In this document: piece by piece, positions 26,801 through 64,000 of the stretch | Layout: every line of letters starts with the position of its first letter | How positions within the stretch are numbered: position 1 is the first letter of the stretch | Assembly (NCBI GenBank): GCA_973895155.1 | Contig: OZ316892.1 | Coordinates: forward strand, 23,351,168 to 23,415,167 | DNA from: Marsupella aquatica | Lineage: Eukaryota; Plantae; Marchantiophyta | Reading direction: 5' to 3' | Length of the DNA stretch: 64,000 nt | Notes under the pieces: model-generated | The model's database searches: none | Seen by the model: only the letters and a program-made list of their open reading frames with translations | What the model was told of the DNA's origin: nothing | Translations under genes and position numbers: made by a program

Positions 26801-29800
26801 ATGCTGATAATGGTAAATTTGAGTGCATTAATAGTGGTCTGGCAATCATTTGGAGTCTTTTAATAACGGATTCTGCTATTCCATTTTGAAAGTGTACGTG
26901 GGGTATAGAGTACTGAGTATCAATCCCTGCTGTCCAGCAGAAGTCGTCGAAGGCTTTGGATGTAAATTCTCCTGCTCCGTCAACTCGTAATATGCGTGTG
27001 GGGTGCTCAAGGAACGCTTTCAATTTTAAGATATGCGCAAGTATTCTTGCGAATACCATATTACGGGTGGAGAGTAAGGAAATTTGTAGCCATTTTGTTG
27101 AGGAGTCGATGAGTACCAGGAAATATTTGAATGGCCCGCTTGGAGGGTCGATGGGGCCGCATACATCTGCATTGAGCTGCTCCAAAAAGTTGGGGATCTT
27201 GTAGACTATTTTTGGTATCGATGGGCGTGTTATCATCTTGCCCTGTGAGCAGGCCATGCACTGTGGAGCCATGGCGTTTGGTTTGGCCGTCTGTGGGATT
27301 CCTTTGGAGTCCCTAATTATTCTGGTGTACATATTAATGCCTGGGTGGCCGAGTCTGCAATGCCAGGTATATGTGATATCCGATGTATCCTTTTCAATGT
27401 GGTATGATTGTATCTTAGCTGCATATAGTCCAGGTGGGATTAGTGGTAAGTTCTCCATAATATGTGGTAATCCTTCCTTGTTCTGTACTAGTTGTAGGAT
27501 TTCAGTTTCGCCTTGTTTTGCTGTTCTTAGTTCATAGTTATTCGCGCGGATATCCTGAAAGTTGATGAGGTTCCTGGTAGCTGTAGGGGCGTATATAGCT
27601 GCTGCTATCGTAATTTTGGTCCCGCCTGGGAATATAATATGCGCTTTTCCTTTGCCTTCTTCTATTTGGTTGGGGCCTGCGATAGTTGTCATCGGTCTAG
27701 ATGATGGGGTGATAAAGTCAAAATATTTGCTTTGTGTCAGTATTGTATGTGACGTTCCGCTATCAATAATGCATATATTAGGGTCAGTTAATGGTGATGT
27801 ATACAGGTGTGAGATAGCAGTATGTGTTTCAATTGGGGCGTCTGCAGGATCTTGGTATGTCGCTATATTTTCTTCGATTTCCATATAGTTGCCTTGTGGG
27901 TTTTGTCTCGTTAATATGCGTTCATTTGTATAGCGTTGTGCCACTTGGTCAGATGCTCTGCATATCTTCCTGATGTGGCCGATCTTACCACATCTGTAGC
28001 ATAGTTTCTGATTATCGTTTGTTGGGTGATTTTGTGGGTTTCGCCATGTGCCCCTGCTTCTGTTGGTGCCACGGTTCCAGGTAGTTCTTTGTGTGGGGAG
28101 CGGGTTTCTGCCCTGGTAGGGGTATCTCCCTTGTCCCCTGAATTTTCCTCTGCCTCCCCTGAATGGTTTTCTTCCTCTTGGGTTGTCTCGTCGCCCGTCT
28201 TGGTAATTTCCATAGTGTGATTCGGGTCGATTGGGTGGTGGTTCTGATCCTACTGGTATTTTTCTTGCGTTATGTAGGGCTACAATTTGTTGTTTCTCTT
28301 CGACTAATAAATGTGCAATGAGGTCGGAGTAGGTCGTAAAATTCATATTTCGGTATTGGGTTCCCAGGGCTATATTAGCTTCTGGGAATGTTGACAGTGT
28401 TTTATCAATGCGGTCGTTATCATTTACTGGGTGGCCGCACATTTCTAGTTGAGATGTGATTCGGAATAAGGTGCTGTTATAATTTGCAATTGTTGTGTGG
28501 TCCATGACTCGCAGGTTGTGCCAGTCCCTGCGTGCTTCTGGGAGCCATATTTCGCACATGTGGTCGAATCTGGATTTGAGTTGATCCCATAGCTTGCGGG
28601 GATTTACCTCATTCATATATTCGTTCTTCAATTGTGGTGATAGGTGTTGCCTCAATAGAAACGCGGCTTTAGCTTTTTGTTTGAGGGTTAGATTTGTATC
28701 TGTATATAGTGTATCTTCAATTTCTTGAAATGCAAAATATGTTTCGACATCTGTGATCCATGTAAGGTAGTTTGATCCGTCTACCTTTAATGCAGGGAAG
28801 TGTAATTTCTCTATGGTATTCATTCTTAATACAATTTGGGATTGTAATGTTTAGTTACAATTGAATATGGAGGTTGCAGGGATTTGGTATTGGTATACCA
28901 ATTATGGTTGTCGTGTGTCTATCCTTGGTCTTCGGTATGATGAATCTTCGATGGCGCGTCTCGTATTAAATTGCGCTCAATTGGATGTGTAGCGATTTCT
29001 AGTTGATGGGGAAAATTTTGGGCTAAACAAGCGATATGGAGTAATTCTAATTGGTGAGGTGTTCTACATGTTCTCAGTGCCTGTACATTGCCCAAAATAG
29101 CGATGTGCTAGCGCTGAGAGGGGAAAAGAAAGGTGGGGGTCGGTTTGGGCGGTTATTGGGAGGAGGGAGAAAAAAAAGTGCCTTTTAAGAGTATTTTACT
29201 CGTGAAAACATCAAGGTGATCGAATTACCAAAAGACTGATTTCAGAAAAAAAAATGACTAGAGCATACTCGTGCTGATAACGTGTTAAGAGTTGGGATAC
29301 CAATGCTTGGAATAATGTGTCCACTCTTCATTAAGGTGTGGCTTTATATAGCCATGAGGTTACATGGTCTAAGGTTAAAGGTAACCTTAGCTTAGGGTTA
29401 TATGTAAACTATGGTTTACAACAGAAACTATGATTCACACTATTTGTAAGGGGAGAGTACTATGTGCTTGTTGGTATGGTGGTTTATAATGTGTGGACAT
29501 TGGTAGTCACAGTTTATGCAAGTATTGGACAATGTGTTCTTGTTGCTATTTACCAGGGCCTTTGTTATTGCTTGACATATAGATTATAATGTGTGGACAG
29601 TACCCTGTGGTGCGTCCCATGGCTCCCTAAACCCAAGAAACCCCCCAGCTCAAGCCGATTCCCGCAGGTTTCGTGCTTGGCGAGGCCGTTTCCGCGGCTT
29701 AGCGGCATGGGACGCTGCTAACCTTCTACTACTACTATTAACATTTTACACACATATACTGGACAGATCCTTCATCGGGTCATGAGATACGTAGCCGGCC

Positions 29801-42900: not shown

Positions 42901-43627
42901 ACCCTAAACCCTAAAACACTTGTCTCATTGTGGGTCTCTTCTAATATTTATGTATGTTTGTGAACTGCTAGAATGCGTATGTTCAACCAGATGTGGGGGT
43001 ATTATCACGAGCAATGCGACAACACCTTGTCGAGGCCATGAAAGATTGGCGTAGGGCTCAAGCTTCAGCGAATGAAGATATCCCTCCTGAGCAAGTATCT
43101 AATGCCACCAATGACATACTTGAGGATGAGAGGGCCATGGATGATCTCATGCACCAGTTCTATGACGTAGAGGATGGTGACCATGGTATGGGTGATGCAT
43201 TTGACACCACAACACATGCTCATCATGACATTCCTTCACGTTGAGGTTCCCCTCTAGACAATGGGAGGAAGCTCGTGACCATGCACAAACAAGGATTTTT
43301 GAGGGGTCACAGCTGTCTCGACTATCAGGAATAATGTTATTGTTGAACTTGCAACAAAGACATGGTGCAATCAATCTCCTTCTTGATGATCTTTTCAGGA
43401 CTTTGCATAGTCGGATTTTTCCAGAAGGGAACTGCTTGCCTAGTTCCTGGAAAGCAACAAAAAAGGTGTTGAAATCCATAGGTCTCAAATATGAAGTTAA
43501 ACATGCTTATTTTCCTCTTATCCCTAGATTACGGCACCAGTACCGATGTGCGGAGTTGGCTGAGTATATGGTGTGGCATTCCAAGAACCGGTCAGATATG
43601 ACTTCAGATCCGCCCACCATGCGTATG

Positions 43628-43924
43628 CTCGGGGGTCTCACTATATGGGGACCTCCCCATCGCCTGCGACGTTTTTAGGCCTCGGACCCCCTAAAATGTA
43701 AGAAAAAAATTTTATTTTTTAACCCCTATAAAGTTGGAATATTCTTGGAATATTCTAAAATTTGGATTAAGAAGACCCTTATATTCTTATAAGTCTCAAA
43801 ATTGAATTTAAAAGACCCTATTGTTCTTCTACAAAAATTCTTAAGTCTTCCCTTAGAACCAATAAAATGACCCTATCCTTCGTCGCACGTGATATGCCAT
43901 TTTTGTGGAAGTGAGACCCCCGAG
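43628..43924. mobile_element. 297-bp MITE, copy 2, inserted in the TnpD coding sequence
   Basis: Perfect 14-bp TIR CTCGGGGGTCTCAC with 8-bp TSD TGCGTATG. Near-identical to 40008-40304. Confidence 0.93.
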
Positions 43925-46900
43925 TGCGTATGATGGTGGACTCACCTGCCAATAGGTTTGTGGAGGACCGATGGGGTGAGTTCAAGACAAATCCACGTCA
44001 TGTACGTCTAGGTTTGGCATCAGATGGGATCAGCCCCTTTGCATTGGCAGGGAAGGCCCAACCATACTCAGTTTGGCCAGTAGTCCTTACAAATTACAAC
44101 ATCCCTCCATGGATGGCCATGAAGAAGGGTCATTTGCTGCTCTCAATGATTATCCCAGGCCCCAAACAAGTAAAAAAGATTGATGCTTACTTGCAACCAT
44201 TGTTGGAGGAGCTTCAACAACTATGGAGAGGAGTGGATTTCTATGATGGTCGAGTGCTTACGGGTGGTTTACCTCGTGAATTTAAATTGAAAGCCATCTG
44301 TATGTGGGCCATACATGATCTTCCGGGTATGTGGAAATATACCTCATCCCATATAAATTATGCATGGTTTGTCATTTCTGGATAATATACCTCACCCCAT
44401 ATTAATTATGCCTTGGTTTATCATATATTGGAGCCCTGGCCATTGTTTAATGTATGCAGTGGGTGTGAACATTGTAGGGTTTGGATATATCTCTGGGTTG
44501 CAGGTCTCGGGATACCGAGCTTGCCCAACTTGTGGGCACGATTTGGAGGGAGTGGCGCGCCCAAAGTCTACCACCCTACGGAAGATAGTTTACATTGGTC
44601 ACACAAAGTATCTCCCCCCAGAGCATGAATGGAGGCGTGACCCATTCTTATACAACACAGATGATGGCCAACCAGACACACGCCCTCAACCAGTGCCAAG
44701 GGATCCACATTATTGGAAAGATGTATGGGATAGAGTGACAGACCCGGATGATCCATTACAATTGGCCCGATGTGGCATGACTCGATTGTCTGCATTAATG
44801 TCAAAGCTGCCATATTGGGCTGAGATGCCAATTAACCATTTGTTTGACCCTATGCACATTGAGGGGAATGTTGGGAGGTCATTGATTCGCCATCTATATG
44901 GAGAGAAAGACAACAACTGGAGAGAGAGTTGTGAGGAGATGGGGAGATGGCGATGCATGGCCCTCATGGGTTTTGGCCATCTATGGATCCTCCTAATGCC
45001 CCCCTGACTATTCACCCTCCTTGGGTATTGACCAGAGGTGAGCGGACTGAGTTTCGCAAACGTATAGGGTCAATGAGGTTTCCCACAGGTTATGGCGCCA
45101 ATCTTCGTAAGGCATTTGGGGGTGATGATTCTCCAAAATGGCCATCTTACCTGAAAATACATGATTTTCATCGGTTACTCGAACATGTCATTCCAGTTGC
45201 AATTATTGGATTGGGTAGTGAGGATCTTCGAGATGCCCTATGGTCATTAGGTAAGCTCTTGAGGTGGGTGTGTCAGAAAGAGGCGAATGAGGATGAGATT
45301 GCAGCAATGGACCTTTTTGGAGTGGAGGTATTCTTTGATGGTCAAGTTCACTTCCTCCTCCACCTAGTGCGTGAGGTTGCGATTGCAGGGCCGGTACATT
45401 GTTGTTGGATGTACTGGGTATATAGAGCAGTATATGGGAGTGATGAAGTCATATGTGTCAAATCATGCAAGAGTGGAAGGTAGCATTGTTGAGCGTCATC
45501 TTGGAGCAGAGAGCATGTTTTATTGTACAAACATTGTAGCTACACTTGATCCCAGAGCTCCAAGGGGCTGGATAGACGAGGCATCAAGGGAAGCAGACTT
45601 TGAGGATGACCGTCTCACAGGGGCAAAGGGAGAACGACTTATGGACTCAACTGAGCGTCTTCAACTTACTACATTTATGTTGTATAACTCGCCTGAGATT
45701 GTGGGAGATTGGACAACTTTTTATGAGGAGGAAAAGGCAAATAGTCGTCGGCCACGCAACTTCCCCAAGTTTGTCCCATACATGAGGGCAAAGTTGACAG
45801 AGATTGATGCCTTGTTGGAGCAAGGGGAGAGTGTGTCAGACTTCCCTTTGGTTACAGACAGTTTTCGCACCTTGGTTCATGGACCATTACTTACGGTGAC
45901 AACTCGGACAGCCATGTGGTCAAAGGGAAGACATTTTTGTGTGCAATGACTTGATGACAAGAGGGCAGCTACACAAGATTGTGGGCTCATGGGTTGGTTC
46001 ATCCAAGATTCACAAAGTAGCATATCTGATAGGAATCCAATACGCTCTATGGTGGCCCACTATGGAAAGATTGAAGAGATATTGAGTGTGAAGTACCATG
46101 CGCACACCACTTTGGAGGAGGTGGTGTTGAAGTGCAAATGGTTTTGGATGAACCTTGTTGGCCAAAACCAAACTTGCAAAGAAGATGCTTGTGGGTTCAC
46201 ACGGTTGAAGACAGGTGCAAATAGTGTCATTAGCTCAACTTGGAGAACCTCTGATCCATTTGCATTCCCCCATCATCTTGAGCAGGCCTTCTATCTTCCC
46301 TATCCCGATGATCCTGAGTGGTCCATTGTCATGAGTTATATTCCACGATCACGATCCATAGTCCAGGAGCGACCCAATGTAGTTGTAGTAGAAGATTTGG
46401 ACCCTGAGCCTTGAGGTCCTTGCTAGTGTACCTTGGGACCAATCAAATAGGACCACCTCTGAATGTTTACTTTTACCGGCATTATTTTTATGATTGTTTT
46501 ATTTCATGTACCCTCTCCTATGAGAGTGACCACATTTCTTAATAAACTTATGAATGTTGGTTTTCCCACACTCTGTCCGATGTAGTGACCAATGGAAAGT
46601 ACTCGGAAACATAGTGCCTTACAATTGTGGCAATATCCGATTCAATCTGCATCGGACCCCTCATGAAAGTTATCGGAGATATTTCCGATCCTCTCCGCAT
46701 CGGAACACTTCCGATGCCAAAAATAACGGAAATAGGGACCGATGGCTTTTGTATCGGAAAAATAATATGCGATGTAAAAATAATGGCAAATTGCGTAAGG
46801 TAAAATATCGGAACTGTGCGACGGTATTAGTATCGGAAGAGTGACGAGGCACAATATCGGAGCATTGGAAAAACACTGAAAATGTACTAGTGCATGTAAG

Positions 46901-47358: not shown

Positions 47359-50138
47359 TCTCCCGGAGCACCACCAAGGCTGAATACAGGGCACTATCTC
47401 AAGGGGCTCGAGAAGGGGTTTTTCTTCGTCGACTTATTGCTGAGCTTCAGTTCATTCTTGCACTTTGGGTGGCACTTCATTGTCCCCAGCAGCCCGATGT
47501 CCTTTCTGGTTTGTCCATGGCACAAACACCCACCACTCAAGATTTGCATCTAACTCTGCATTGTACGTGACAATCAGGGTTCCATCAACCTTGCCAAAAA
47601 TCCAATTTTTCATGCTCGAACCAAGCATATTGAGCTGCAGTATCACTATATTCGTGAACGTCTGCTCGAGGGGGAGGTATCTGTCAAATATATTTCTGCG
47701 ACAGATAATCCAGCAGACATTCTCACAAAAGCACTTTCAAAGTGGAAATTTGAGCAGCACCAGAGTTTTATTGGAATGAGATCTTTACAAGATGTCTTGG
47801 CCAGCTCGCCATCTACCTTTGCTCAGAGTGAGTGATATCTCTGTAAATCTCTAAGCAATACTCACATCGGTATATCTCCTTTCCAATGTGATCTTGTAGC
47901 AAGGTGATAAAGAGATAAATGATTGTTTACTCCTTAACAAGTTGATTTTGTTCCCGTTAGGAGTGGATAAGATGGAAAAGACTAAATTAACACAATTTGA
48001 GAAGTTTACACCAACATTCTTAGGTTTGAGAGATTTCTAATGATCTCCTTAACATAAGTGTTTAACCACAAACTCAAGTGAGTAATCCTCAGGATTCATA
48101 GTGCAAAAATAAATACTAGAATTAGCAAAGATTCAAACTAGAGAGAGTAGGTATGAGGTTTCAAAGTGCAAGGACGTTGAATTTTGACCATCACCACTCC
48201 TTCAATAAGGATTATGGCCTAATTTAAGATTCGGAAATCAATATTGTGTATGCTTTTTGATTTCTCATAGCAACTCTTCTTCATCTCTTGAATTCAGAAT
48301 ACAACAATGTAAATCAACCCTGGACACTTTTCTGGTCTTGCATAAGACGGTACTAGAATACTCAAATTGGTTTACTTCTCTTACTATCCTTAAGATTGCT
48401 TGTTTGATCGAGTTTCATGCAATTTCAATTTCCTCTTTGATGAATCTTCTATATGTATTGGTCACAAACCCTGCTAATCTTCCAATATCGTCATAGGCAC
48501 ACGCTAGTATCCATTGAATCATTGCACAACAACTCAAGGGTTGCTAATCTTGAACTTCTCTTTACTTAACCATGGTAAAAAGAAGGGAATCTGAAAAGAC
48601 ATAGATTCATCCAAAATCAAAATGGGGAAATCAAATGCATCTCTCTCTTGGTTGACTTTGGGCTCTGAGCCTCCTTTTGTACTAAAAGTGGAGATTATGA
48701 AAAAACATGCCTTTTCAAAACCCAAGTCTAAAGGAATATGTAAATAAAAGTAAACTATCATAGTCAAAAATATATGGAGTAGAGTCTCCAATAGATATAT
48801 CAACAAAATATTGGAGTCTACTTACTCATATACTAGTCTAGTACATAGCCATTTCTAGGTCTAAACTAATGTGGCTCTAACTCTCTAAATATAACTCTAT
48901 TCTGGTCCTAACTTTTGAGAAGGAACCTCCTTAGGGCTAGCTACAACAAGGGGCTCTGGTCGGACGAAAACTCCCTACTGTCCAGTGGTAAAAGGAAGGG
49001 ACGGGTCAATGTCCAGGTTCTCCTAATGAGCGCTTGGATCATGGGAATAAGTGTAAGAATGAGAGTGGAGGTGTGTATTGGTGGTGTAAATGTATCATCT
49101 ACCTTGGCACTCACATCTACCACTGACATGATTTCGGACCAATTGAGAAGTATTTCCGCACATAGAGAAGGGTGTTTTTCATTCTCGCCAATTTTGTTGA
49201 AATGACACAAATAGCGATCCAAAATTCCGCAATATCCCAATAGTTCCATTTTTGTATCGTAGATGGGATTTCATTGAAGGGGTGAGCAATGCCCACAGAC
49301 TACCTCATTATATATATTTAAACTTCCGAAATGTACTGTTTGTTGTTGACAACGTTCAACTTTGTTTCCAACATGGAAAATCCTTATTTTCCGTCAACTT
49401 GTACACATGGAAAATAGTTTTGCTTCCAAACCCAAACACATAAAGGAAAGCAACTAGCGATACTCGTATCGCAAACCACATTCATCATTTGAGAATATAC
49501 TCCAAAAGTAGCTCAACCTCTCCTTTCAAAAACTTTACTATCAACAATTTGAAAAGTTACATCATAGTTGCCCAAAATTTACTACACAATTCAACGCAGT
49601 TGATCTACTTTTAACCAAAAAGTAAAGTGACAAAATCATGGTAACCATTCCGCCTAACCATCGTGAAAAGTGATTGTGAATCAGCAAAACTATGGTACAT
49701 AACTCCAAAGCACAATATGTGCACCTTTTACAGGACCAATTTGAAAAAATCACCCCAAAATGCAAAAAGCGATACTTGTATCGCATCTAGAACCAAATTG
49801 TCTCAATGGCTGATTAAAGCAACCCACAGTACAATATCCCAAATAGAATAAAAACTGCATCCACCCCGGAGGAAACACTTAACATGTACATTAATTTTGT
49901 CGTTAAAACACTAATTTGAACCTTTTTTAATCACCCAAGCTATTTTGTCGTGTAGCGGCTGACCAGTCAGAAGTAGCCACATGGCTCAGGGTCACCAAAA
50001 ACTATAAATACATCAACGCCGACTAAGTTTTTTGCACCATTTTGTTTCACAAAGTTATGCGTCTATTTGAGTTTTTTGAGCATAAGAGCATTTTGTGACA
50101 GGAATGCCCAACAGTATAGAGTTAGTTATATGTTAGCC

Positions 50139-50612
50139 ATGTCTCAAGAGTGGTCGCCCTCCAGTTCAGTTGAGTCCTCCCCCAATGGTGGTCCTCATGG
50201 TCGTCGATGTTTGCCAAATCATATTCGGAAATTACTCCCAGTTTCTCAACAGAGTGTACCCGAAATATCGGACTCTGATTCTGATGGAAGTTCTGAACCA
50301 GAACCTGGGGCTTACTATGTGTCACCTAGTAAACCTGATAAACGTCGGCTCCTAAACATTGCCTCCCCTCGGATGCAAAAGCTTTCTATCCAAGGTTTAG
50401 GTTCTAGACATCAATTTAGACCGTCTATCCCTAGGTATGGTGAAGGAATCAAGAAGACAATACGCGTATCGGCAACGAGATTGGGATCTCCAATTGACGC
50501 TTCAAGTTTCCAACAGGTGCCAGAGGAGAGAAGAGAAGGTCGAATGCAAACAGCGATACGTGTATCGCCATTTGCATTGCCTTTGAGGGAATCAGTTTTG
50601 CCACAGGTGTAG
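50139..50612 (+). CDS. Short Ser/Pro-rich ORF of unknown function, possibly a truncated paralog of the transposase N-terminus
   Basis: TATAAATA at about 50003. The acidic SDSDSDGS segment resembles the low-complexity N-termini of the DUF7869 genes. No domain was recognised. Confidence 0.3.
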   Translation: MSQEWSPSSSVESSPNGGPHGRRCLPNHIRKLLPVSQQSVPEISDSDSDGSSEPEPGAYYVSPSKPDKRRLLNIASPRMQKLSIQGLGSRHQFRPSIPRYGEGIKKTIRVSATRLGSPIDASSFQQVPEERREGRMQTAIRVSPFALPLRESVLPQV

Positions 50613-51302
50613 CGAAGGATATTTCTTGGGACAGACGTGAGAGCGCAAGGTACAATACACACAACGATACGTGGATCGCCATTTGCATTGCGTCGAAGAG
50701 AACTGGTTCTCAGCAACAGCAAAGACAACGGACTACAAAGTCAACAAGAAGCCTTAAATGATGAGTAACAAGCCCATACTTTAGGAACTCTAGCCAAAAA
50801 ATCAGAAAAACAACGAAAAAGTCAAAAAAAGTGCAAAAATTAGCACCTATTTTAGAGCAAAAATATGGAGCGAACAAAATATGACATAAACTAGCTATGT
50901 TTTGACACCTAAAAATGACCAAATTCATCTGAAGTTACATTCCACCAATAAATGATCTCAAATACAACACTATTATCTACAATGGTCTCACAATTACACG
51001 AGGTGTCTTTTGAAACAACAACTAAATCACCTCCAAAAGCCATTGTCATTTAAAAACCAGAAAATAAATTACTACAACTTAACCTGATACACATTATTGT
51101 GAAAAGAAGACAAGGAGAATAGAAATGACACCATCTAATTGAATTGAAACACAACCCACTAAGATAATATTAAACTACAAATTTCTCAAGAAACTTTAAC
51201 CATGAATTCATGAATAAGTGGTAAAGGCATTTTGAAAATTTGTAAATTTTCAAGTTATCCATGTTTTTCAATGGTAATGTCACAAACAATAACTACTTTT
51301 CA

Positions 51303-54300
51303 TTACTCAGATCCAGAAGTTCTCAATTCTTGAAACGAAATATCCCTAGATTTATCTCCTAGCGGGGTTCTAGTTGATCCATTCTCTTGTTCTTGCTCTT
51401 TCTCTTCTGCCAAAAATTCAGTCAATCGGATTTTGATTCGATCTACTGTCTTTTTGTACAATGTATCAGATTTTGTCAACATGAAGTTGTAAGCAAAAAC
51501 AGTCGTTGAAGATAAATCAAGCTCTTGGTGAAACCATATTGGTTTCAAAGTTCCTTTCCCACGACCACGTTTCTTCTTTTCGTAGTTTAAGACTTCTGGT
51601 AAGTACTTGGCTTTCCAAGGATCTGACCCGGTTTTTGGAGCATGCCATAAAACATAAATCATTTTTGGAATGTTGAACTCGTCGCGCTGGTCAATTCTTT
51701 CCACCTTGGCCACCCAAAATGTTTCCGATTCTTCTCCAGCAACAGAAATATAAGTGTTGACTTCAAGATCCGAAAAGTCTCCTTCCATATTCTCCTTCTC
51801 TGCATCTATCTTTCCTTGATTCCGATAAGGACCCACGTATATATCTCTGGTAGGTCCGTATACTCTCTCTTCAATTTCCTCTTCATTGACAAGGACTCTG
51901 GGAACTTCAGCAGCAACAGCAATCTCCCTTTGGGAGCGTGGCCATTGAAAAGGGAAAATCAATGGTCTTTGATCAAGGAGCAAAGATTTATTCAATTCCC
52001 GTTGCTCTTCAAAAAACATTCTCCACCAGTTCACTTCCTCTTCTGAGAATAAAGTTTCAACTGCAAGTATTCCCTTTTGAATCTCATTTAACGAATCATC
52101 CATCTCCTTCAAAGTCATTCTTGAAGAACTAGACATATTTGGTTGAGTCCTTGTAACGTTCTTATCCCCCTTTTTGAAAAGGGGTAATCCGGGAGCACAA
52201 CCCATCACCTTTTCTGGCTCCTCTTCCCTCAAAAATTTCACGCCTCCGTCAGGTTTCCAAGTTGAGTCCGTGGAAAACTTCTTCCCCCATTGGGTTGGAA
52301 CTTGATTTTCCAACTTGTCAAATGCAAATTTGTACTGGTGGTGGAAGGTAACATTTCGAATCCTTTCAATGACTAAAGGTGGATCTGAGAAGGCATATTG
52401 ACGGAAATCATATGTTTCCTTTAAAAGAGCGATATTTGGTTGGGGTTGATATGATTCACAAATAATATCACATAGGCTTTCGTATGTGAATGCCTTAAAC
52501 CTTGCTAGTCGTTTAGAAAATCGACTGAACATTTGATCTATTTGGTCGTGTGTGTGTCCAACCAACAAGAATCCTAGTTTGATTTTCCGAAAAACCTTTC
52601 TTCGAATCAACATATGAAGATAGGCAAAGAGTAAATTATTTTTATTTTCTCTACTGGTATTATCAAGTTGAAGATAGAGAACAGGCGGCAAGCCACCAGG
52701 CTTTTCTTCCCATTCGTGAAACACCCTTTGCAGGATTGTGACTGTCAAGTTTCCATCATTATGCAATACAGGATAATTAAGAAACACTCTTGAAAATAGT
52801 GCACCATTGAAAACCAGGCATCCGACAACGTGCATTTGGATCAAACATGTTTCGTCCACCGATTTTGGGGGCCGCGGCCAATGAGGCAACCTTGTCTTCT
52901 TCTGATCCATCCCATCAATGACAACTCCCAAATATTTATCAGAATTTGAAAAACATTTCTTACGATGCTTCGCGAGTTTCTCACGTTCTTTGGATTGTTG
53001 GTCTCTATGTTTTTGTAACATAATTTCCCCTCGCCCTGGAAAAACAACTTGTTAGTTTCTTAAAAAAAAAAATTAGAAATCATGTGTTAAGCCATATTCT
53101 TGAAACAAAAACTTGTCAAACTTGTAAGCAACTTACTCTTTTCGGTCTCCGAGACAGCTTTGTCCCGAATTGATTTGAACTCCTCGCAATCCGCGCAAGC
53201 ACTGAATCGATTGACTGGAGGAATCTTCACATGACCAAATTCTTGAACCCAAACTTTCAAGAATTGTCGATAGGATATTTTTGAAGATTCATCAATCTTG
53301 GCATAGTTGGAGTCGTAGATCTTCCATACCTCCAGCTTTGAATAATTATCCGGTAAATGTGAAACTTCTTTATTTGGCAATGTTTCCACGCGTGTCTCAA
53401 AAAACGACCTAAGCCAACTGACCAAGACTAATCTTTTAACAGATGGAGGGCGTCCAACTGGTTTAGAATATCCTAAGTCTTGGTTGTCTAATTTCAAAAT
53501 TCTATTTAATCTATGATTGCCAACGCAAAATATAAGCTTGAAAGCTTTCCGACAAATACTCTTTTGACCAAACGTGTAAGATATAGTCTGCCTCCCTCCT
53601 TCATTTCCGTCTCGCTTTATAAGCCACTGCAAAGATAAAGATCGATCCTGAGATTTCTGCCTCAAAAATTTAGAACGGGCCTCACGAATTTCTTTTGGAG
53701 ATAGACTTAGGAGACAATGACTCTGACAACAGTACTTACTATTTGTTTTCTTGATATCCTCCTCTTTCAACTTTGTTTCACACAAAGTGGCGTTGCTCGT
53801 ACGTTTGTAACGACTAGATGCCACCGGAACATCATCATCCTCCCCACTCTCCGAAGACTCGCTTTCATTCGATGATGAAATGGTCACCAACATTTGCTTC
53901 TGAACATGCCTAGATTCCAGACCTGCAGCCTTCGGAGATGGAGGCTCTTCCTTCACTCTATGCACCCTTGGAATACCTGGGCGTATTTCAGAAATCCCTC
54001 CATTACCGTGTAGGGACCCTTTCAATATTTTCCTAGGGTCCCTCTCCACCAGGTTGGTTTCCCTGTTTGAGTTTCCGTGACTTGATCCGCTCCCTGCCCC
54101 AACACCATGACTCCTAGGTAAAACTGAGGAACGCACATTAGAATTCTTTTCTGGAATACTTTTCAATAACACTGGTCGTCTAGTTTCTTCCCTCATCCCC
54201 CTGTGAAATGTTTCCGACGTTGGCTTACCAAAGGTTTTACTTTTTGGCATTTGCTTCAGCCGCTGAACACTTTGCAGACTGCAAAAATCTCTGTCATTTT

Positions 54301-54703
54301 CCCCACTTAGTGCCTTCTTCGTCTTTCCAAATCCAGTCTTCATGAATTCATGAGACCGTTTCCCAGACATCCAAATAGGCATTGAACCTTCCAGATTACT
54401 CCCCAATTTGTCCTTTGTTGGTGACAAAGGAGATACAACTTGACGTCCAGGGGGACCAATACTCTCCAAGGAGTCAGAGGAGCTCCCTGACCTCTCTTTA
54501 CCACCGACCAATGATTTCTTCCCACTAATTGCAAGTCATAAAGGACTACGTTTTAACTTGCTCATAGGGGTGGGGGGTGGCATATCTAAAACAGTAGTTA
54601 TTCCAGGGATATCTGGGCCAACCACTGTGCAGGGGCCATCCGGCAATGAAACATCATCAGAAACTCCATCTGAATAATCATCTGATTCGTAACACGCCGC
54701 CAT
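51303..54703 (-). CDS. DUF7869 / Sola-like DDD transposase 1 (exons 54703-53137 and 53035-51303; one premature TGA at 54536-54538)
   Basis: Motifs: CCQSHC, ICRKAFKLIFCVG, FSACADC, IDGMDQ, LYLQLDNTSRENKN, FLLVGHTHDQIDQMFS, plus a C-terminal FWVAKV...YVLW beta module. It has a phase-1 GT-AG intron and TATAAATA on the minus strand near 54802-54809. Confidence 0.85.
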
Positions 54704-55246
54704 TGGAAAAACTAGTGCAAATTGACAAGAAACTCAGAAAATCAGTAAAATCTAACAAATGTTCTCAAAATAATGACCAAGAGTCATGAATAAACGAGCC
54801 TATTTATAGTTTTTCACGGATTGTTGGGACTTTTTAACTTCAAAAATATCAAATATTCATGAAATTTGCAAGCTTTTACCCGTTAATACCCCGAAATATT
54901 CATGAATAATTGGCCCAAAAACATTGATTTATCATGATTCTGGGTTAATTTTACTAAGTCGCGCCTGATCCGTGATTAGTATGTATAACCAAGGAACACG
55001 GGGCAGCCCATTCATTTTCACTCAATGTCATTTGGATTTCCTTTGTAAAAGAGTGAAAAACAATCTCGCTATCCAATTTCGTGCCATTTTCAGCACTCAT
55101 CGGCGACGTGTCGCGAGTTGTCGCGGTCGCACTTCATTTCAACCCTGTTTTAGGTAGTAATTTAGGCCCTGGGTGATGTCTTCACGTCACCCCCTCCGAA
55201 CCCTATTTTAAATACCCTTCTGCATCACCGAGGTGTACAAGCAAAG

Positions 55247-55396
55247 AGAGAGGAGACTCCCTTCATGAATTCATGAAGGTCGGAGCGAGAGGGAGACTCC
55301 CTTCATGAATTCATGAAGGTCGGAGCGAGAGGGAGACTCCCTTCATGAATTCATGAAGGTCGGAGCGAGAGGGAGACTCCCTTCATGAATTCATGA
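55247..55396. repeat. 40-bp tandem repeat x3.7 containing the perfect 20-bp palindrome CCTTCATGAATTCATGAAGG
   Basis: Palindromes at 55260, 55300 and 55340, plus a partial one at 55380. The array lies between a TATA-like box (about 55204-55214) and the methyltransferase ATG. Confidence 0.95.
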
Positions 55397-55561
55397 TAGG
55401 AGTCCTGGGGTGGCCGAGAGCGTTGTTAGATCCGTAAGGACACGGTTTTAGTAGCCATTTGTTGGCACATTCCTTGGTTCTGTGGCACTTTGTCTCGCAG
55501 GTTGGGGTTGAAGTGGACTGATTTTGTGGTATGTTCTCAGGTTTGAAGATCAGGCAAAAAC

Positions 55562-58500
55562 ATGACAATGTCGCAGGAAGAGCTGGTGGATGACATCTTT
55601 TCGCGCCATCCTTTGACGGACTTCCACAACTCATCCTGGACGATTTCCTTAGGGACGGAAACATGGAAGAAGCCCTTCCTAATGCTGTGTGTATTTGAGG
55701 GGCTTCCATCGGGGGCATTAGGGTGGGTAAATTACGGCCGCATCGATGTATTTCGACGGGGCGACGAAGTTGTGAACATGTTGATCACAACGAAGGAAAC
55801 ATCAACTTTGATTGTCGTGGATGTGGAGAGGTTTTCTGGAACGGCTGCCACCTGCTATCTCGATGAGGACATCGATAGCATCATTGAGACTGTCAAGTCT
55901 CTTTCGAGTGAGGAACGTTACCACGACGTCGCGGGAAAGATTTCCGGTTTTGTGTTTGAATTTCACGCTAGCACTTTAAAGAGTGCAATCCGAAAATCAA
56001 GAGAGATTCTCCGGAAAAGGTCGGCAGAGAAGGGAGTAAGTCGTCCACCCAAATCTGGGGCTTCCGGTGTTCCTTCTGGATCGAGGCCTAGCATTTTACC
56101 CGATGATATTTTGACCGTGGTAGCGCCTACAACCTCCCGGGAAGCAGCAGCATCTGGAGGGGGATCTCAAGTTGGCAGATCATCCCAGGGAACGACTTTG
56201 ACTGGTGGGTCGGCACAAGGTACGACTGGAACTCGCATTTCTTCAAAGAAGCGACCTGCTATGACTCCTAAGCCTACCGAGCCCAGTGCTACAAAGTCAA
56301 AAAAGAAGACTTTGGAGAAAATTCCAACGCATTTGGAGCAAAAGGCTCAATCAATGTCAATGGATGCACGGGTATTGTACCAGGAGGAGATTCTGGGAAG
56401 ATGTGGTGTTCAAGAGGAGACCGTGACCGTTGACATTGGTCAACTTTACCCTCCAGTGAGAGAGAAGGCTGTGGGCTTGCCCATTTACCAGGTCCGACAC
56501 ATCCAACCATATTTCTTGACCCAATTGACCTTGCGGATGAAGACTGTGGGTGCCAGTCCACTTGCAGCTCCGTTTGTCCTCTTGGTGGATCCGAAGGAGT
56601 GTGCTACTAGGCAAGACTTTGATTTTTCAAGGAAAGCTGATTACCATTATTATGTGATTGGGGGCAACCATTCAGCCTGTGCCAAAGCAGACCTTGCTCT
56701 TCAGTTCCCTAACAACAAGGCATTTCGGAGAGTGCAATCTTGGATATTTGCGGGATTGAGTGTGCAAGAGGCAAGAAACCTTGCGTGGAGTCACAATATT
56801 GATTCTGAATTTCGACAACAGATGACGACAATCCAGAGAGTAAATTATATTCACATGAGATTTGTTGAGAATGGATTGTCGTCCAACCAGGATTTCAAGA
56901 AAGAGTGTGCTACTGAAATCAATCTCAAGGATTGGGGTGTACGAAAGGATGCTGAGGTTCTTAATGCCAATGATAACCTATTTCAGTTGGCATTCCGACA
57001 AGATCCTGTGTGGTCATTTGTGAGGCAGATTTGTGACAAGTGGGAGATGTGTGAGATCAAAGGTCAAAAAGGAGACAAAGGCAAGAAGAAAGTCTCTAAG
57101 TCTGGAGATGCCAAATTGCCTTATGAAGACATGAAATTAACAGAGTGGAGACACATGCAGGCCTTGAAAGATCCTGATATGATTTGCCCAGTGTTACAGA
57201 GAGTTCTTACTAAAGAACTCTCTTTACAGGAAATGGGTCACGAATTTACTCGACACAAATTTCAGATGCAGGTGCAGAAGGCCTTCCTCACGTGTCTACA
57301 CGAGGAGAGTTGGTCAGGTTGTAAAACCAAGTACCCTGAGCATTGCACAGACAATGTGCTTAAGAATTTTGTACCGGTTTTCCAGACATGGGTAAGATTC
57401 TGTCACCTTTCTTCGAATGATTGTTTGAATTCATTTAATATTTGGAATCCTTGTTTCTAATTCTACAGTTCCTTTTTGTAGAAAGATACCACCTCCCGGA
57501 AAAAGAAGGGAGATGAGGAAGGCAAAGATCTCAAGTCATTCCCGGACAAATTCAATGCGCATATTGTGCAAGCCCAAAATTGGCTATCCATGAAGACTTC
57601 TAGTCGGCAAACCCAAGAGGGGGAACTTCATCCAAATTCGTTTGAGCATCCAGAGTTTGGTGATGTGCACTATGATATTTTTACTCATGATGCTCAGCGA
57701 TTACATGAGGTGGTTCCGGGTCGGGCTTACACATTAGCTTTAGTGGATATTCCCTACGGGTTTGCATTGCCTGGATGTCTTCATGAAGACACTATTGGAT
57801 GGGGAACTGAGGAGATCACAAAAATGGTCCAATCGTTCAAGGTGGCTACTACTGCAAAGTTGTGGCGTATTATCATTCACCACAGCCTTGACCAATATGA
57901 GGCCATCAAGACCGTTTTGAAAGCGGAGTGTAATGGAGGGTTCCAGAATTGTGTGTGGTAAGAAATATTTGTTTTTGAAAAAAACAACTATTAGTTATTC
58001 ATGATTTCATGAACCATGTTTCTCAGTTTAAATAACTCCTTGACTTTTTGTGACTTTTCAGGGTTAAGGATAATGTGAAGAATGCTGGTGGACCAAGATT
58101 GAACAACAACTTTGAGTGCTTTACAATTGGCTTTCACAGCCAGGATGGTAAACGGTCATTGGAGCACTTCAATTTTGACACAAATGAATCAAGGAACAAT
58201 GTGGTTGTATGCGCAGCTGTGACTAAGAAGCTGAAACACAACGGGGATAACAAGGCAGTGAATGTTTATCAGAAACCACGTGCATTGTTAGATTGGGAAG
58301 TGAGTCATTTTAGTCAGGTTGGAGACTGGGTTTTGGATATTTGTTCAGGATCAGGGACTGGGACAACCTCCTCCTTGGCCATGGGGAGACATTGCGTTGC
58401 CATTGAGATTGACGAGCGACAGAGCAGTGTGTTGAAAGGGAGGATTCTTAACCTTGCAGATAACATTGAAGAGGAAGACGGACAGGGGGAGATGGATGAG

Positions 58501-58623
58501 GAGAGTGAGGAAGACATTCCTCAGGCCGGAGAGGATAGCGTGGTTGACGATGCCACAATTGTTCCAGAATTGACGACAGGGACTTCCGGAACCGAGGAAG
58601 GGGAAGCGGTCCCTTTGGATTAG
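55562..58623 (+). CDS. ParB-like + beta-class N6-adenine/N4-cytosine DNA methyltransferase 1 (3 exons, 955 aa, intact)
   Basis: Exons 55562-57391, 57482-57957 and 58062-58623 are GT-AG, in frame and total 2868 nt. A ParB/Srx-like YYVIGGNHS motif comes first. Catalytic motif IV LVDIPYG precedes YQKP...VLDICSGSGT...GRHCVAIEID (motif I), which is the permuted order of the N6_N4_Mtase family. Confidence 0.88.
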
Positions 58624-59025
58624 ACTAGATAAATAGAGGGACTCGTAGCATTTGAAACCACTTGGGCTTAAGTTGGGTTATATTTTGTAAAACTTTGAGT
58701 TTGACTTAAACTCTGATCGATGAGTTTGATTTTGATTACTTTTATAAAGTGCATATTTCAAGGTTTATACAATTGTGAGAATATCATATAAGATATGCTT
58801 AGATTTTGGTGGTAAAATTCTCTTGAGTCTAGTTTGGAAAATACATACCATTTTTTGGTGGTTTTTTGGTATACACTTTTTAATATCATGAAGATTTTGA
58901 AAAGAGAAATAAGGCTTTGGACTCATCCCTTAAGGCTTCTTGTTAGTCCAGAATCTGCGCAATCTCAAATTGTAGTGGGGAGATGTGTACAATGATTATT
59001 CGATGCTTCTCCAATCAATGGACCA

Positions 59026-61884
59026 ATGGCAGCCGCTCGTGTACACAATACAAGTTTGGGGAACAATCAAGACACACCATTGATGACCGCCAGACCCACT
59101 TCTGCAACTAGGAGTGTTTCTAGACAGCCAATTAGACGTCTTCAAGTTGCTAGACGAGGCCTCACTAGTTTTAGCGGAGTTCAAATTATGTACAGAGAAC
59201 CAAGAAGTCCAATAGTGTTTTCTGATGAGTCAAGTGAGGAGGAAGATGTTGAGGAAAATAGACAGTCGCAAGCCATTGCACAAGTTGTATCAGAATGTTT
59301 GGAAACAAATGAGGGCGAGAGTAGCTATAGTCATCTCTTTAGTGATCCGAGAAATCCCACTCTACCTTCAGATGATAGTAGCTCAAAAGATACTAATGGT
59401 TCTATTCCGGAAGTTGCAGAGAGACAAGAGAGTGAAAATTCACTCCATGGATTTCACAGTATGGAGAAACAAAAGGAGCTTAGCAAGAAAGTGAGAGACA
59501 AGCTTGTGAGGAAAGATAATGTTACAAATCAAAATTTAAAGACAAAAAAAATGAAAGAAGTTTTTAAGTACCATGTTGTGATAATTTGTGTTTGAGAAAT
59601 TTTGGTCTAGATTTAGTGACAAAACACCGAACCTTCTATTATGGCTTATCATCGACCAAGAAGAACATACTTCTAAGGGGCTGTTTGAAAAGTGGGCACG
59701 GTGGTCCAACCGGTTACATTGTTGACGGGAGATCTTTTTGTCGAGAAGGTTTCAAGAAATTATTTTCCGTTGGAAATAATCGGCTGCACAGAATCTCAAG
59801 GAATACGTTTTCTCGTATTCAAAATGACACATTTTGCAAGGAAAAATCGGTTACTCATCTTTCACTAGTTCAATGGTTGAATGAGTTTTTCATGTCAAAT
59901 GTTGAAAGTCTTCCAAACAAGGACATCTTCCACTTACTAGACAATTGGATGAAAGCTAAAGTATTTGATGCTTTCAAGACTGATACTATGGTGCGGAAGG
60001 AAACCGAGATCACATATTCTTGGTTTGTTTGCATCTGGAACAAAGAGTTCCCCAGGGTGCATATTCCAAAAAATAGTCGCTTCTCCACATGCGGTCCTTG
60101 CATAGAGTTCAAAGCACTTCGCGACAAAGCAGTACTTGAAGTAGAAAAACGTAAGTTGTGTCTACCTTTAAATAAGTAAAGGATTGATGTTAAGTACTAC
60201 ATTATTTACTTGTTTGGTTTGGTGATGCGGTTATTATTGACAAAACATTGACGTTCATTTGACAGGAAAATATTCAACACTTTTGAACCAACATCGGAAA
60301 GCACAAGGAGTTGAGAGGGAGAAATTAGCAAAGCACCGAAGCAAGTGCTATAAGAGTCCAGAAAATTATTTGGGGATCTGCATTGATGGTATGGATCAAA
60401 AAAAGACTGAGTTGCCACATTTCACTAGGTGCCCCAAAAACATGGACGAGAAGTACTTTATTCCGGTACATGTGGTGGGTTGTTTGGTGTTCAATGGACA
60501 TTTGACATCAAAAGTGTTTTTGAATTATCCAAACATTCACAATGACACCAACTTGACAGTGCATGTGATGCAACATATTTTAAATAGTTGGGAAGGTCCA
60601 CTCCCTCCAGTGTTGTATCTACAACTTGATAATACCCCTCGAGAAAATAAAAATAAATTTCTCATGGCATATTTGAATATGCTTGTTGAGATGAGGGTTT
60701 TCCAAAAGATCAAAGTTGGTTTTCTTTTGGTTGGACATACCCATGATCAGATTGACCAAATGTTCAGCAAGTTCTCCTCAAAATTAAATAAGCAAAAAGC
60801 TTTTCGGGTGGATAGTCTTGCAGACATTCTCAAGGATTCGTACAATCCAAAGGCTGAGATAATTTTTGTTGAAGAGGTTGCTGATTTCAAGAAGTTTGTG
60901 TCGGATAAAGACCAACCCAATGACATGGGAGGTATTGGGCATGTTTTGTGTCCTCTACATGGTATTAGTGGTCAAAAGCAATTTAGGATGAAGAGGGTTG
61001 TAGGAGAGAATGGAGGAACTTCAACTTTGTTTCACGCAAAGCATCTTTCTAGCACTCAAAGTTGGGGAGAAGCAGTGGAGTTCCTTAGATACATCCCCAC
61101 ATCTACCATGTGGGTTGCTGCACAAATGGCATTGAAATCTACAACCAGAGCAACAGTGGAGAATGATGAACATGATGACGGAGGCAATGGAGACGAGCGT
61201 CTTCTCTACAACCATGTTGCAGTCCTGGAGAAATATCGCAAATCAATTGAAGATGGATTCAATTACTTTGATGATGAGGATAAACTTTGGTGGCTCCATT
61301 TCTTTGACAACCAGAAAGAAGTGATTAAACACCACTTGAAGGCAGGACAATGGGTTTTTGATTGGACGTGGCCAAAATCAAATATTGGAGTAGAGACTCC
61401 AAGAAATGCACTTCCCCCACAAATAGAGCTAGCCTTGCTAGATAAAATTGCAGGCGCAACAACAGTCATGTACTCTGGAACAAGGAAGAAGAAAGCAGTC
61501 GAGGGAGACTTCAAAGATCTTGAAGTGAACACTAAATATGCAATGATTTGCGTGGCTGCATATAGGGATCCAAACAGCAGACCATTTTGGATGACAAAAG
61601 TCATAGATATTCTATCCAAAGTACAAGATGTTCCAGAGAACATCAAAATTGTATGGTATACAATGGATTCGCGAGAAGGGTCTGCTATGGAAGGTCAATA
61701 TTACCCTGAAAAAGCTGCATCCTCTAACAAGTTACTTGAGGACACATTGTGCCTCTCAGAAACCGCAGTTTATGCATATAATTTTGCACTGCTCTCAAAC
61801 AACACGCTTCCAGTACAAACAAAGCGAATCATCCAAGCAGCAATGCTCGACACGGAAATCATTGATGCAGATGACTGTGACTAG
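59026..61884 (+). CDS. DUF7869 / Sola-like DDD transposase 2 (frameshift near 59545-59570; intron 60151-60265)
   Basis: Same motifs as transposase 1 (CCDNLC, FCREGFKKLFSVG, FSTCGPC, IDGMDQ, LQLDNTPRENKN, VGHTHDQIDQMFS, FWMTKV...IVWY). The phase-1 intron is at the identical position after DKAVxExEK. Confidence 0.85.
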
Positions 61885-62049
61885 TTAGAGTAGGAAAAGT
61901 GCAGATAGGTAGGAATGTTGTTGGGAATGCTACATCCGATACATGTATCGCCAATTGCATTTCAAACCTCAAATAGAGATATGTTTATCAAGGTTCTCAA
62001 TCATTAATAGAAAGCCTTGATAAATCCTTAATAGTGTTATTGCACACAT

Positions 62050-64000
62050 CTAATCTAACAACATATCATTGAGTTCCCCATCGTCCGGTGTTCTAGGTAG
62101 CTCTTCTTCAATGTTTGGCTCATTTTCTTTAGGCTCCTCCTGGTCATCAGTATCCACATAAATGCTAGTACCAATGACTCCCAACTGCCCACCAACCGGA
62201 GGCTGAACTTCTTGTCCCTGGCCACCTTCACCGGACACTTGTGCTTCATCGTATAGAGTCCAGACAGATTCCAATGTCATAATCCGACTCCTCAAAAATT
62301 CTACCTGAGTCTCACCTTTGTCAACAGCACACCCATTCCGAGAGTTGAGAAGTGCAGCCACCAATGTTGACCCAGTTCCACAACAAAGGTCTGCCACCCA
62401 GTCCCCTTTCTCACTGAAATGATTAACAAACCAATCACCCAATGCAATTGGTTTTTGGTAAGGGTTTACAATAAACCCTAATGGACTCACAGACTTTGTA
62501 GTAACACAGGGAACTTTCACAATGTTCACCCTGCTTTCATCAGGAGCAAAATTGTACATCTCCTTCTTTCGGACTCCATCCTCACTGTAATAACCAATTG
62601 ACCAGTTCTCAAAGGCCCAAGCTAGCCTTGGCCCAGAAGGGTGCTCATGGATGTTTGTCTTCTCCCATATACCGGCCTCAACTCCGCAATTGCAAACCTT
62701 CTCAAGTGCGCTCATAACGCTATTTGTCTGCTGCAAGGAATGGATCACAACAAACCTCCACATTGGAGAGGTGGTGATTTTAGCAAAATTAGTAACCATC
62801 TCATTTACATCCTGTTCAGTGAAAGGTTCCTCGTCAAACTGAGAACCAGGGGCATTGAAACCGTATAGGATGTCTGCAATTGCCAAAGTGAAATGTTTTG
62901 GCTCTAGAAAGGTTTCTAGTTTCCGAATATCTCCAACATGAAGAGAATATGAGAATGCGTCTCCATTTGCATTCTTCCATTGATGTTGAGATGAAGCTGT
63001 AGCAATTGATGAGATATTTAGTCTCCGATTGTGTTTTTCAATTGCTTCAAGAACATAGTTCTTGAAGACGTAGGGGATGTCGCATGAAGGAATCTCAACC
63101 TCCACGCCCTCGTCAAATTCATTTCCAAAAATGACTTTTTTCTTCCTCTTTGAACTGATTTTGAACTGCACATTAAACAAAACTCTTTGTAAGATTTCCA
63201 AACACAAATTTTGAATGCCACCAGTGATACAAGTAACACTACCTGCATTCAATATCTCAAATATTTGCTTTGAATATATATAACTGAAAACAAAGGGACA
63301 TAAGGACATTGTGCTTACTGCTTCTGTGAGCTTTTCGCACCAAGTTGAAAGGACTTTCACATCGGTTTCCTGGGGAAACATTTCCCGGCATGTTGCCCAA
63401 TCTTTTTGACCAGAAATCTGCAGGAACAATTTCTTTACCTTTGCCAACTTCTTAAGTGTCTCACCTTCTTTGAACATTTGTTCTAGAGTGATTTTCTTTC
63501 CAATTACTCTGTTTAGGAGTCGCTTCACATGCTCCTGATTGGAAAGCCCCTGGAGAGCTCTGAAGACCCTCAAATTGAAATGCCCAGAGAGCTTGTTCAT
63601 TTTGATTTCACTTACACTCAGCGGTTTAGGTTTAGCTTTTGATTTACCTTTTGATGTTGCTGATAGCTGCTTGGCCATGATTGGCTTTGTTTGACCAAGG
63701 ATCTCAAACTTTTGCCACATAGAGAAAATTTTATCTTGGAGCTCCCAAATCTCCCCAGATTGAAAGGCAATCTGAAATGTAGGGTCATGTTTGGCCATTG
63801 AGTCACGAACACCTGGAGTGTAATCAAGCATACATTCCTTACAACAAGCTTCTTGCAACTCTTTAGTTGACCCCACATTCATTTCCATGAAAATATTGTG
63901 ACAGGCACGAACTTTGTCAATCGATGTCATGGTTTTCCGGTACTCCTGGTCGTAGTTATGCTGGAAAGCCAGCATCCTGATCTCATGTCTCGTTAGACCA
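62050..64000 (-). CDS. Methyltransferase paralog 2 (5' part runs off the window; probable 153-bp intron 63166-63318)
   Basis: LAFQHNYDQEYRKTMTSIDKV is homologous to LAWSHNIDSEFRQQMTTIQRV of copy 1. Motifs include IADILYG and NPYQKP...VADLCCGTGS...RNGCAVDK. The intron is at the position equivalent to copy 1 intron 1. Confidence 0.85.
   Translation of the reverse strand, partial: GLTRHEIRMLAFQHNYDQEYRKTMTSIDKVRACHNIFMEMNVGSTKELQEACCKECMLDYTPGVRDSMAKHDPTFQIAFQSGEIWELQDKIFSMWQKFEILGQTKPIMAKQLSATSKGKSKAKPKPLSVSEIKMNKLSGHFNLRVFRALQGLSNQEHVKRLLNRVIGKKITLEQMFKEGETLKKLAKVKKLFLQISGQKDWATCREMFPQETDVKVLSTWCEKLTEAVSTMSLCPFVFSYIYSKQIFEILNAGSVTCITGGIQNLCLEILQRVLFNVQFKISSKRKKKVIFGNEFDEGVEVEIPSCDIPYVFKNYVLEAIEKHNRRLNISSIATASSQHQWKNANGDAFSYSLHVGDIRKLETFLEPKHFTLAIADILYGFNAPGSQFDEEPFTEQDVNEMVTNFAKITTSPMWRFVVIHSLQQTNSVMSALEKVCNCGVEAGIWEKTNIHEHPSGPRLAWAFENWSIGYYSEDGVRKKEMYNFAPDESRVNIVKVPCVTTKSVSPLGFIVNPYQKPIALGDWFVNHFSEKGDWVADLCCGTGSTLVAALLNSRNGCAVDKGETQVEFLRSRIMTLESVWTLYDEAQVSGEGGQGQEVQPPVGGQLGVIGTSIYVDTDDQEEPKENEPNIEEELPRTPDDGELNDMLLD

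Follow-up and report, generated by a model that had tools for sequence, protein, structure and literature searches.

The window, i.e. the whole 64,000-nucleotide stretch of Marsupella aquatica DNA analysed here, consists of eukaryotic, repeat-rich DNA (Copia, CACTA) and contains at positions 50743–58944 a cut-and-paste transposon of 8,202 bp, which we refer to as element 1. Element 1 is bounded by terminal inverted repeats at 50743–50774 (plus strand; the first 15 bp perfect, 32 bp at 84%) and 58913–58944 (minus strand; from inverted repeat detection), has the termini AACAA...TTGTT, and is flanked by a 4-bp target-site duplication at 50739–50742 and 58945–58948. Contigs of three of four public runs (X1, X2 and X4; two studies) contain the empty site, i.e. 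they join 50738 directly to 58945; the window itself may derive from one of them. Four letters at the joint fit both sides, and the shorter side comprises 255 letters in X1 and X2 and 28 letters in X4; the joint was not found in the contigs of the remaining run, X6. Based on this joint and, for the left copy, also on the sequence, we conclude that element 1 extends from 50743 to 58944 and is flanked by the duplication AGTC.

Element 1 encodes a DUF7869 transposase on the minus strand and a methylase, here methylase 1, the gene of which is divergent from the transposase gene. DUF7869 we take to be Sola1. Element 1 sits within a related element, element 2 (49125–64000, plus strand; the left end is approximate and the right end lies beyond the window), whose DUF7869 transposase gene it interrupts in the 5' part; element 2 also contains methylase gene 2, which is convergent (minus strand, from 62050 to beyond 64000). 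What the initial annotation treated as a module is a single transposon with defined ends that lies inside another transposon, and its methylase has a predicted ParB-like domain; both points go beyond that annotation.

The transposase gene spans 51303–54703 on the minus strand with one inferred intron near 53.0–53.1 kb. In its 3' open reading frame, D36, D120 and D162 are conserved (98%, 99% and 99%, respectively), and the predicted mariner-like DDD core, of RNase H fold, aligned with Mos1 (Z 8.7, rmsd 3.5, 161 residues aligned). An in-frame stop at 54536–54538, for which contigs of runs X1, X2 and X5 have a different last letter (54538), makes this copy look non-autonomous, whereas methylase gene 1 is intact. 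The model of the transposase also contains a predicted BAH-like C-terminal domain (model residues ~410–526, window 51303–53021; DNMT1 BAH1 Z 6.4, EBS Z 5.8), which is possibly a chromatin reader.

Methylase gene 1 (55562–58623, plus strand) has predicted GT-AG introns at 57392–57481 and 57958–58061 and encodes a protein of 955 aa without an internal stop. The catalytic part is a beta-class N6/N4 methylase (PF01555, E 1.5e-8, above the curated cut-off) in which motif IV (DIPY, residue 699) precedes motif I (residue 861). Motif IV starts with D in all 17 aligned sequences covering it, 16 of which have D-[IVL]-P-Y while methylase 2 has DILY in this copy; by comparison, 13 of 13 homologs have D-x-P-Y. 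In this family DPPY is of the adenine type and SPPY of the cytosine type, and targets were switched repeatedly (PMC8885841). From the DIPY sequence, adenine is more likely than cytosine as the predicted methylated base.

The N-terminal 632 aa of methylase 1 were not placed by sequence searches of PDB, Pfam, NCBIfam and PHROGs. An AlphaFold model of this part, based on 130 sequences (pLDDT 81, pTM 0.57), predicts a PH-like domain (residues ~18–140), a ParB/Srx fold (279–420) and a KorB/ParB-like helical region (408–568). The best Foldseek matches of the model were Noc bound to DNA (7ol9, E 4.5e-5), ParB (6sdk) and KorB. With VIA, residues 279–420 aligned with PadC (Z 10.2, rmsd 3.1, 100 aligned), and residues 408–568 aligned with the DNA-binding domain of operator-bound KorB (Z 5.0, rmsd 3.9, 109 aligned); for the latter region the scores against the DNA-binding domains of KorB, SopB and ParB (Z 4.0–5.0) are weak and in a range that the tool deems common for helical regions. 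Phage ParB and methylase proteins were at the top of the viral library, and a homolog (P0133) matched a ParB PHROG (E 3e-4). Atlas assigned residues 245–610 to DUF3723, a Starship auxiliary family (0.96), and made no assignment for residues 1–160. The PH-like domain that opens the protein (window 55562–55980) was confidently modelled, with a best Z of 4.6. The closest named homologs are from liverworts, i.e. Calypogeia (47%) and Riccia. In Riccia sorocarpa a DUF7869 protein and a methylase fusion have the consecutive tags R1sor_010795 and R1sor_010796 (proteins P0185 and P0032); further homologs are labelled Chara, Ginkgo, Calypogeia and the hemichordate Ptychodera. Iyer et al. 2011 reportedly covers green-algal relatives.

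Box II of methylase 1 reads GGNHS and lacks the GxxR arginine; across 80 aligned sequences this column contains S in 64% and T in 10%. The arginine is required in ParB, where its loss abolishes nucleotide binding (PMC12704722), and we therefore regard a CTP clamp as doubtful and do not class methylase 1 as such. A phage ParB has been described that activates a DNA-modifying enzyme without needing the Box II residues (PMC13229309).

Between the divergent genes, 5' of methylase gene 1, lies a tandem array at 55246–55396 (plus strand; period 40, 3.8 copies, 99% matches). Consistent with the initial annotation, which had described a 40-bp unit with a perfect 20-bp palindrome, the array contains four TCATG-AATT-CATGA palindromes (starts at 55263, 55303, 55343 and 55383); the first three lie in perfect 20-bp palindromes (starts at 55260, 55300 and 55340), while the fourth is perfect across 14 bp only (55383–55396). 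Together they contain eight TCATGA sites. Two further full palindromes are present in element 1, one at 54340–54353 in the low-complexity 5' coding region of the transposase gene and one at 57999–58012, with the centre ATTT, in the last intron of methylase gene 1. A site at 51201–51212, 3' of the transposase gene and 458 bp from the left end, lacks the outer T on one side. Thus, the doubled TCATGA noted earlier at three places stands for 54340 and 57999, while at 51201 there is a CATG-N4-CATG with a single TCATGA. In addition, four single TCATGA, possibly half-sites, lie in the transposase promoter (54784–54937); the positions given for them previously were right to within one base (54784 instead of 54783, 54857, 54900 and 54932). 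One of these sites is 11 bp from a TATA-like box (54801–54810, minus strand; the box was read by eye), and the cluster of four has a Poisson P of ~1.5e-4 for a 500-bp stretch picked after the cluster was seen. Another single TCATGA is at 58886, 53 bp from the right end.

The initial annotation had also proposed that TCATGA is enriched across the module and may be the enzyme's own target, CATG and TCATGA being known specificities of m6A methylases. In the whole window TCATGA occurs 39 times, compared with 27.5 ± 5.0 expected, a count reached in 1 of 100 shuffles. When the array is collapsed so that two palindromes remain, element 1 contains 16 TCATGA vs 4.2 expected (0 of 300 shuffles), whereas bases 1–50730 contain 19 vs 20.1 expected, i.e. 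there is an excess and it is confined to element 1. By contrast, CATG alone is not enriched (36 vs 36.5 expected). The gapped palindrome TCATG-N4-CATGA occurs four times in the collapsed element 1 (0.01 expected) and is absent from bases 1–50730. CATG-N4-CATG occurs seven times in the window (1.7 expected; 0 of 100 shuffles); all seven sites are inside element 1, with none in the remaining 55.8 kb. As the spectrum of spacings showed, what is conserved is the 4-bp spacing between the CATG halves. We conclude that what is conserved as a unit is TCATG-N4-CATGA, a gapped palindrome of 14 bp, and neither the TCATGA hexamer nor the 40-bp unit.

To compare these positions with those in related elements, we used three loci with DNA (L001, L002 and L003; 46–62% protein identity) out of 28 candidate stretches from one metagenome scan; L002 and L003 are from a single assembly. 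TCATG-N4-CATGA is present in all three. A pair of palindromes is located 5' of the methylase gene in all three elements covering this region, with the two copies 40 bp apart in L001 and 42 bp apart in L002; L003 ends before this region. The last intron of the methylase gene contains the palindrome in all four elements, and the palindrome in the 5' coding region of the transposase gene is present in both elements compared (window and L001, positions 346–359), where it aligns as an island; L001 carries a second, degenerate coding site. The palindrome is thus kept at matching positions in diverged relatives, yet the surroundings, including the introns, are unalignable. In an unbiased scan for gapped palindromes, TCATG-N4-CATGA ranked first in element 1, L001 and L002, while in L003, with one site, nothing ranked above chance. 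The outer T and A, which were outside the search pattern, are each kept in 13 of 14 sites, a set that omits the two inner copies of the array and one coding match in L001 (CATG-GGGG-CATG).

The centre of the palindrome differs among elements and tends to agree within one element: the window has AATT and ATTT centres, L001 has ATAT and ATTT, and all three L002 sites, which extend over 2.9 kb, have CTAG. Such agreement is expected if an element-encoded binder drifts together with its sites. Because all L002 centres are CTAG, L002 contains no TCATGA despite three full palindromes. In total, these observations argue against the methylase having TCATGA or CATG as its catalytic target, with sites clustered to allow methylation-based autoregulation: CATG is enriched in none of the four elements, L002 is devoid of TCATGA, and it is the fixed 4-bp spacing that is conserved. 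The clusters of single TCATGA in the transposase promoter (four in the window, three in a like place in L001), an adenine in each arm of the palindrome and a motif IV nearer to DPPY than to SPPY fit such a target, which we nevertheless consider highly improbable; methylation may occur inside the bound palindrome.

Element 2 served as a comparison. In the same type of scan (half 5, gap 0–10), a different palindrome, GATAC-N2-GTATC, ranked first in element 2, with four occurrences vs 0.002 expected (49459, 49771, 50555 and 61938; degenerate copies at 50460 and 50666); this motif is known from one copy of the element. TCATG-N4-CATGA and GATAC-N2-GTATC are each missing from the other element and from bases 1–49124. 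Along both elements, neighbouring palindrome sites are separated by at most ~3.1 kb. A helix of the methylase that may read DNA has almost the same sequence in the window, L001 and L002, whereas methylase 2 differs there; the transposases differ in step too.

These data bear on whether the palindrome is bound by a transcription factor of the host, or arose through template switching and slippage and has no function. Tandem arrays and perfected palindromes can form spontaneously, and the 40-bp expansion as such may be neutral; however, the absence of the site from the other 55.8 kb of the window, the different motif of the sister element and the retention of the site in unalignable introns make both extremely improbable in our view.

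Altogether, we favour, with a probability of about 60%, that the palindromes are parS-like docking sites for the ParB-type part of the element's own methylase and that the array arose from an ancestral pair by slippage. The suggestion of the initial annotation that the sites are operator-like is supported by their conserved positions, their confinement to element 1, and the adjacent gene with its predicted ParB and DNA-binding fold. In the model of methylase 1, the predicted ParB fold together with the KorB/ParB-like region points to the palindromes as its likely docking sites. A methylase dimer would bind each 14-bp palindrome, and the leader pair, with its two sites 40–42 bp or about four helical turns apart and beside the divergent promoters, would be the main control point, where binding could damp transcription of the methylase gene itself; the single TCATGA near the TATA-like box of the transposase gene could be weak half-sites. 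The dispersed sites would address the methylase to its own element in cis. Once docked, the enzyme would methylate nearby bases, more likely adenine, in a sequence that need not be the palindrome, and this self-methylation may help to keep the promoters open.

The ratio of observed to expected CpG is high near the leader pair (0.90, 1.18 and 1.24 in three elements) and low near the intron site (0.45, 0.40 and 0.60), so the site alone is not linked to CpG retention. The retention near the leader pair fits an open promoter, without showing a protective mark.

The palindromes could also be internal binding sites of the transposase, or of its N-terminal cysteine-rich part, through which it would control the divergent promoters or organise the transposition complex. 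Element-specific motifs are equally expected for a transposase, which co-varies with the element just as well as the methylase; the left end has a site at a distance of 458 bp and the right end a half-site at 53 bp; and Spm TnpA and the AtMu1 transposase act as sequence-specific activators. However, CATG is absent from the terminal inverted repeats of element 1, most palindromes are internal and centred on the methylase gene, and it is the adjacent gene that encodes a predicted ParB-fold protein with an operator-binding-like region. We therefore regard binding by the transposase as unlikely.

As an alternative to operator-like sites, the initial annotation had considered 5'-UTR hairpins that limit translation. 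In the form considered here, the leader copies would act in RNA, with hairpins and tiny upstream frames restraining the translation of a risky methylase. The leader copies fit this: each site reads Met-x-x-stop, in the window the stops of the upstream frames overlap the next start, and the array folds at −69 kcal/mol (z −4.9). With the palindrome cores fixed, pairing of the flanks is strong in L002 (z −4.0; 0 of 300 shuffles) and slight in the window (z −1.6 and −2.1), but the L001 flanks add no pairing (z −0.5), i.e. pairing is strong in one of three leaders. Moreover, the same motif is present in an intron, where the sites fold like shuffles (z ~0), in the coding region of the opposite gene, and past the stop of that gene, and it is the arms that are fixed while the loop varies. 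Chained upstream frames are missing in L002, and we dropped the stop-start chain as the main function for this reason. A generic hairpin or microRNA was likewise dropped, based on the z-scores of folding and on Rfam matches that were microRNA-like and sub-threshold only. Overall, a primary function in RNA appears very unlikely, and an RNA effect may accompany DNA binding as a secondary consequence. In L002 (307–380), each of the two leader palindromes is part of a perfect palindrome of 32 bp, their flanks differ, and the spacer between them is itself self-complementary; the 40-bp unit of the window contains a similar small spacer hairpin.

The leaders of the relatives contain two palindromes, compared with four in the window. 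In run X1, a contig that begins at 55333 covers the last two palindromes and continues into unique DNA; its depth of 530.6 is similar to that of its neighbour (533.3), while ~785 would be expected if the array were in every copy. Read depth is not copy number, and the array is bridged by no contig, and these depths are therefore a hint that two palindromes are usual and that four represent a local expansion. In run X2, a diverged contig with 20 differences covers 55332–55576, and those among them that were listed lie in the spacer. We conclude that an ancestral pair was probably expanded locally to give the array of four palindromes.

Among known systems, element 1 resembles most closely in description Sola1-1_Ec32 of the brown alga Ectocarpus (PMC12477816), the protein of which has been proposed to bind and modify its own element; the best protein match of Sola1-1_Ec32 is a Physcomitrella Sola1. 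Both elements are cut-and-paste transposons with a 4-bp duplication (ends AACCG-CGGTT there and AACAA...TTGTT here), and in both a second gene on the opposite strand encodes a ParB-like protein fused to an N4/N6 methyltransferase (1104 aa there, 955 aa here); the two proteins are likened here by description. Sola1-1_Ec32 differs in its size of 21.5 kb, compared with 8.2 kb, in its repeats of 282 bp, compared with 32 bp, and in its host, a brown alga as opposed to a bryophyte. In the main text of that article 'palindrom' occurs 0 times and no binding site is named. The target site of insect-type Sola1 is AWWT (PMC3845634), and the one duplication seen for element 1, AGTC, does not match it; since, in addition, the likeness to Sola1 is by description, we call element 1 Sola1-like only.

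The red-algal Plavaka cassette PAG3/PAG2 (10.1101/2025.02.11.637652) similarly has an accessory ParB-like protein, for which tandem arrays of inverted repeats next to its gene have been proposed as sites. There, however, ParB has a 2OG oxygenase as its fusion partner, the N6 methylase is found apart from it in a SET fusion, and an EnSpm/Plavaka element serves as the carrier, whereas element 1 combines ParB and methylase in one protein and has sites also in an intron and in coding DNA. Supplemental Fig. 13A of that work, on Bostrychia, may show repeat sequences, which would bear on novelty. VANDAL elements and their VANC proteins (PMC5735166) share with element 1 an element-encoded protein and a family-specific short motif multiplied by non-coding tandem repeats; the VANC motifs are non-palindromic and VANC removes 5mC, and the analogy is one of function only. 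No match to the VANC family was found in a Pfam scan of the window.

With ParB–parS, Noc–NBS and KorB–operator, methylase 1 and its sites share the predicted order of folds, i.e. ParB followed by a helical DNA-binding region, and a palindrome of similar size (PMC12704722), a source that also describes fusions of ParB to N6/N4 methylases as common in phages. Unlike these bacterial systems, the system in element 1 lacks the Box II arginine, has an extra PH-like N-terminal domain and introns, and resides in a eukaryotic transposon. Beta-class amino-methyltransferases of bacterial origin are also represented by DN4MT1 of the liverwort Marchantia (10.1101/2021.02.12.428880) and N4CMT of bdelloids (PMC8885841), which work in eukaryotic nuclei; they are host genes, have SPPY and make 4mC, whereas methylase 1 has DIPY, is fused to ParB and is borne by a transposon. 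Iyer et al. 2016 describe ParB-linked methylases of chlorophytes and haptophytes and, in the portion available, name no such element in bryophytes (PMC4738411). We found no bryophyte ParB-methylase transposon in the literature searched; the same search missed the Ectocarpus paper, so absence from print is not established.

In total, we conclude that the finding is real and functional-looking and that the kind of system is known: element 1 joins the kind described for Sola1-1_Ec32 and Plavaka PAG3, and what is new is the land-plant family and a defined candidate site. The algal papers propose self-binding or self-modification by ParB fusions and, in their available portions, name no binding sequence and report no test. 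A candidate site of 14 bp that is kept at matching positions of four elements, together with the intact gene for the enzyme and a sister element as control, makes the idea directly testable. A broader scheme for addressing transposons in land plants, in which the ParB-methylase of a family loads at its own palindrome, with sites at most ~3 kb apart, spreads along the element and writes an adenine mark that distinguishes self from the host and from sister families, so that two nested elements would run orthogonal codes in one nucleus, is improbable. If true, plant transposons would have a second, enzyme-based escape from silencing besides VANC and TnpA, land-plant nuclei would have a source of adenine or N4-cytosine marks, and the system might provide a site-addressed methylation tool.

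Relatives of the module were not found by tblastn in viral contigs or prokaryote genomes, and no ParA gene was seen in element 1. When viral contigs were scanned for exact occurrences of the paired motif, eight loci were obtained, none of which matches the proteins of the module. In several of them (L005, 5001–5053; L008, 5001–5056; also L006, L007 and L011), a pair of TCATG-N4-CATGA flanks a TTGACA box, and these phage pairs lie near genes for small HTH regulators in unrelated gut-type phages. Since the proteins of the module are unmatched, we rejected these loci as relatives; they are likely ordinary phage operators of the same shape.

In the remainder of the window, decayed pieces of a CACTA/EnSpm transposase (Transposase_21, DUF4218 and DUF4216) are located at 43241–46414, near a 297-bp direct repeat (40008–40304/43628–43924; 97%). 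An apparently young Copia-like retroelement with two identical 141-bp direct repeats is present at 23422–29423. Finally, CCGAT-N9-ATCGG occurs eight times in bases 1–49124, outside both elements and near CACTA-like ends, and probably represents subterminal repeats of another family.
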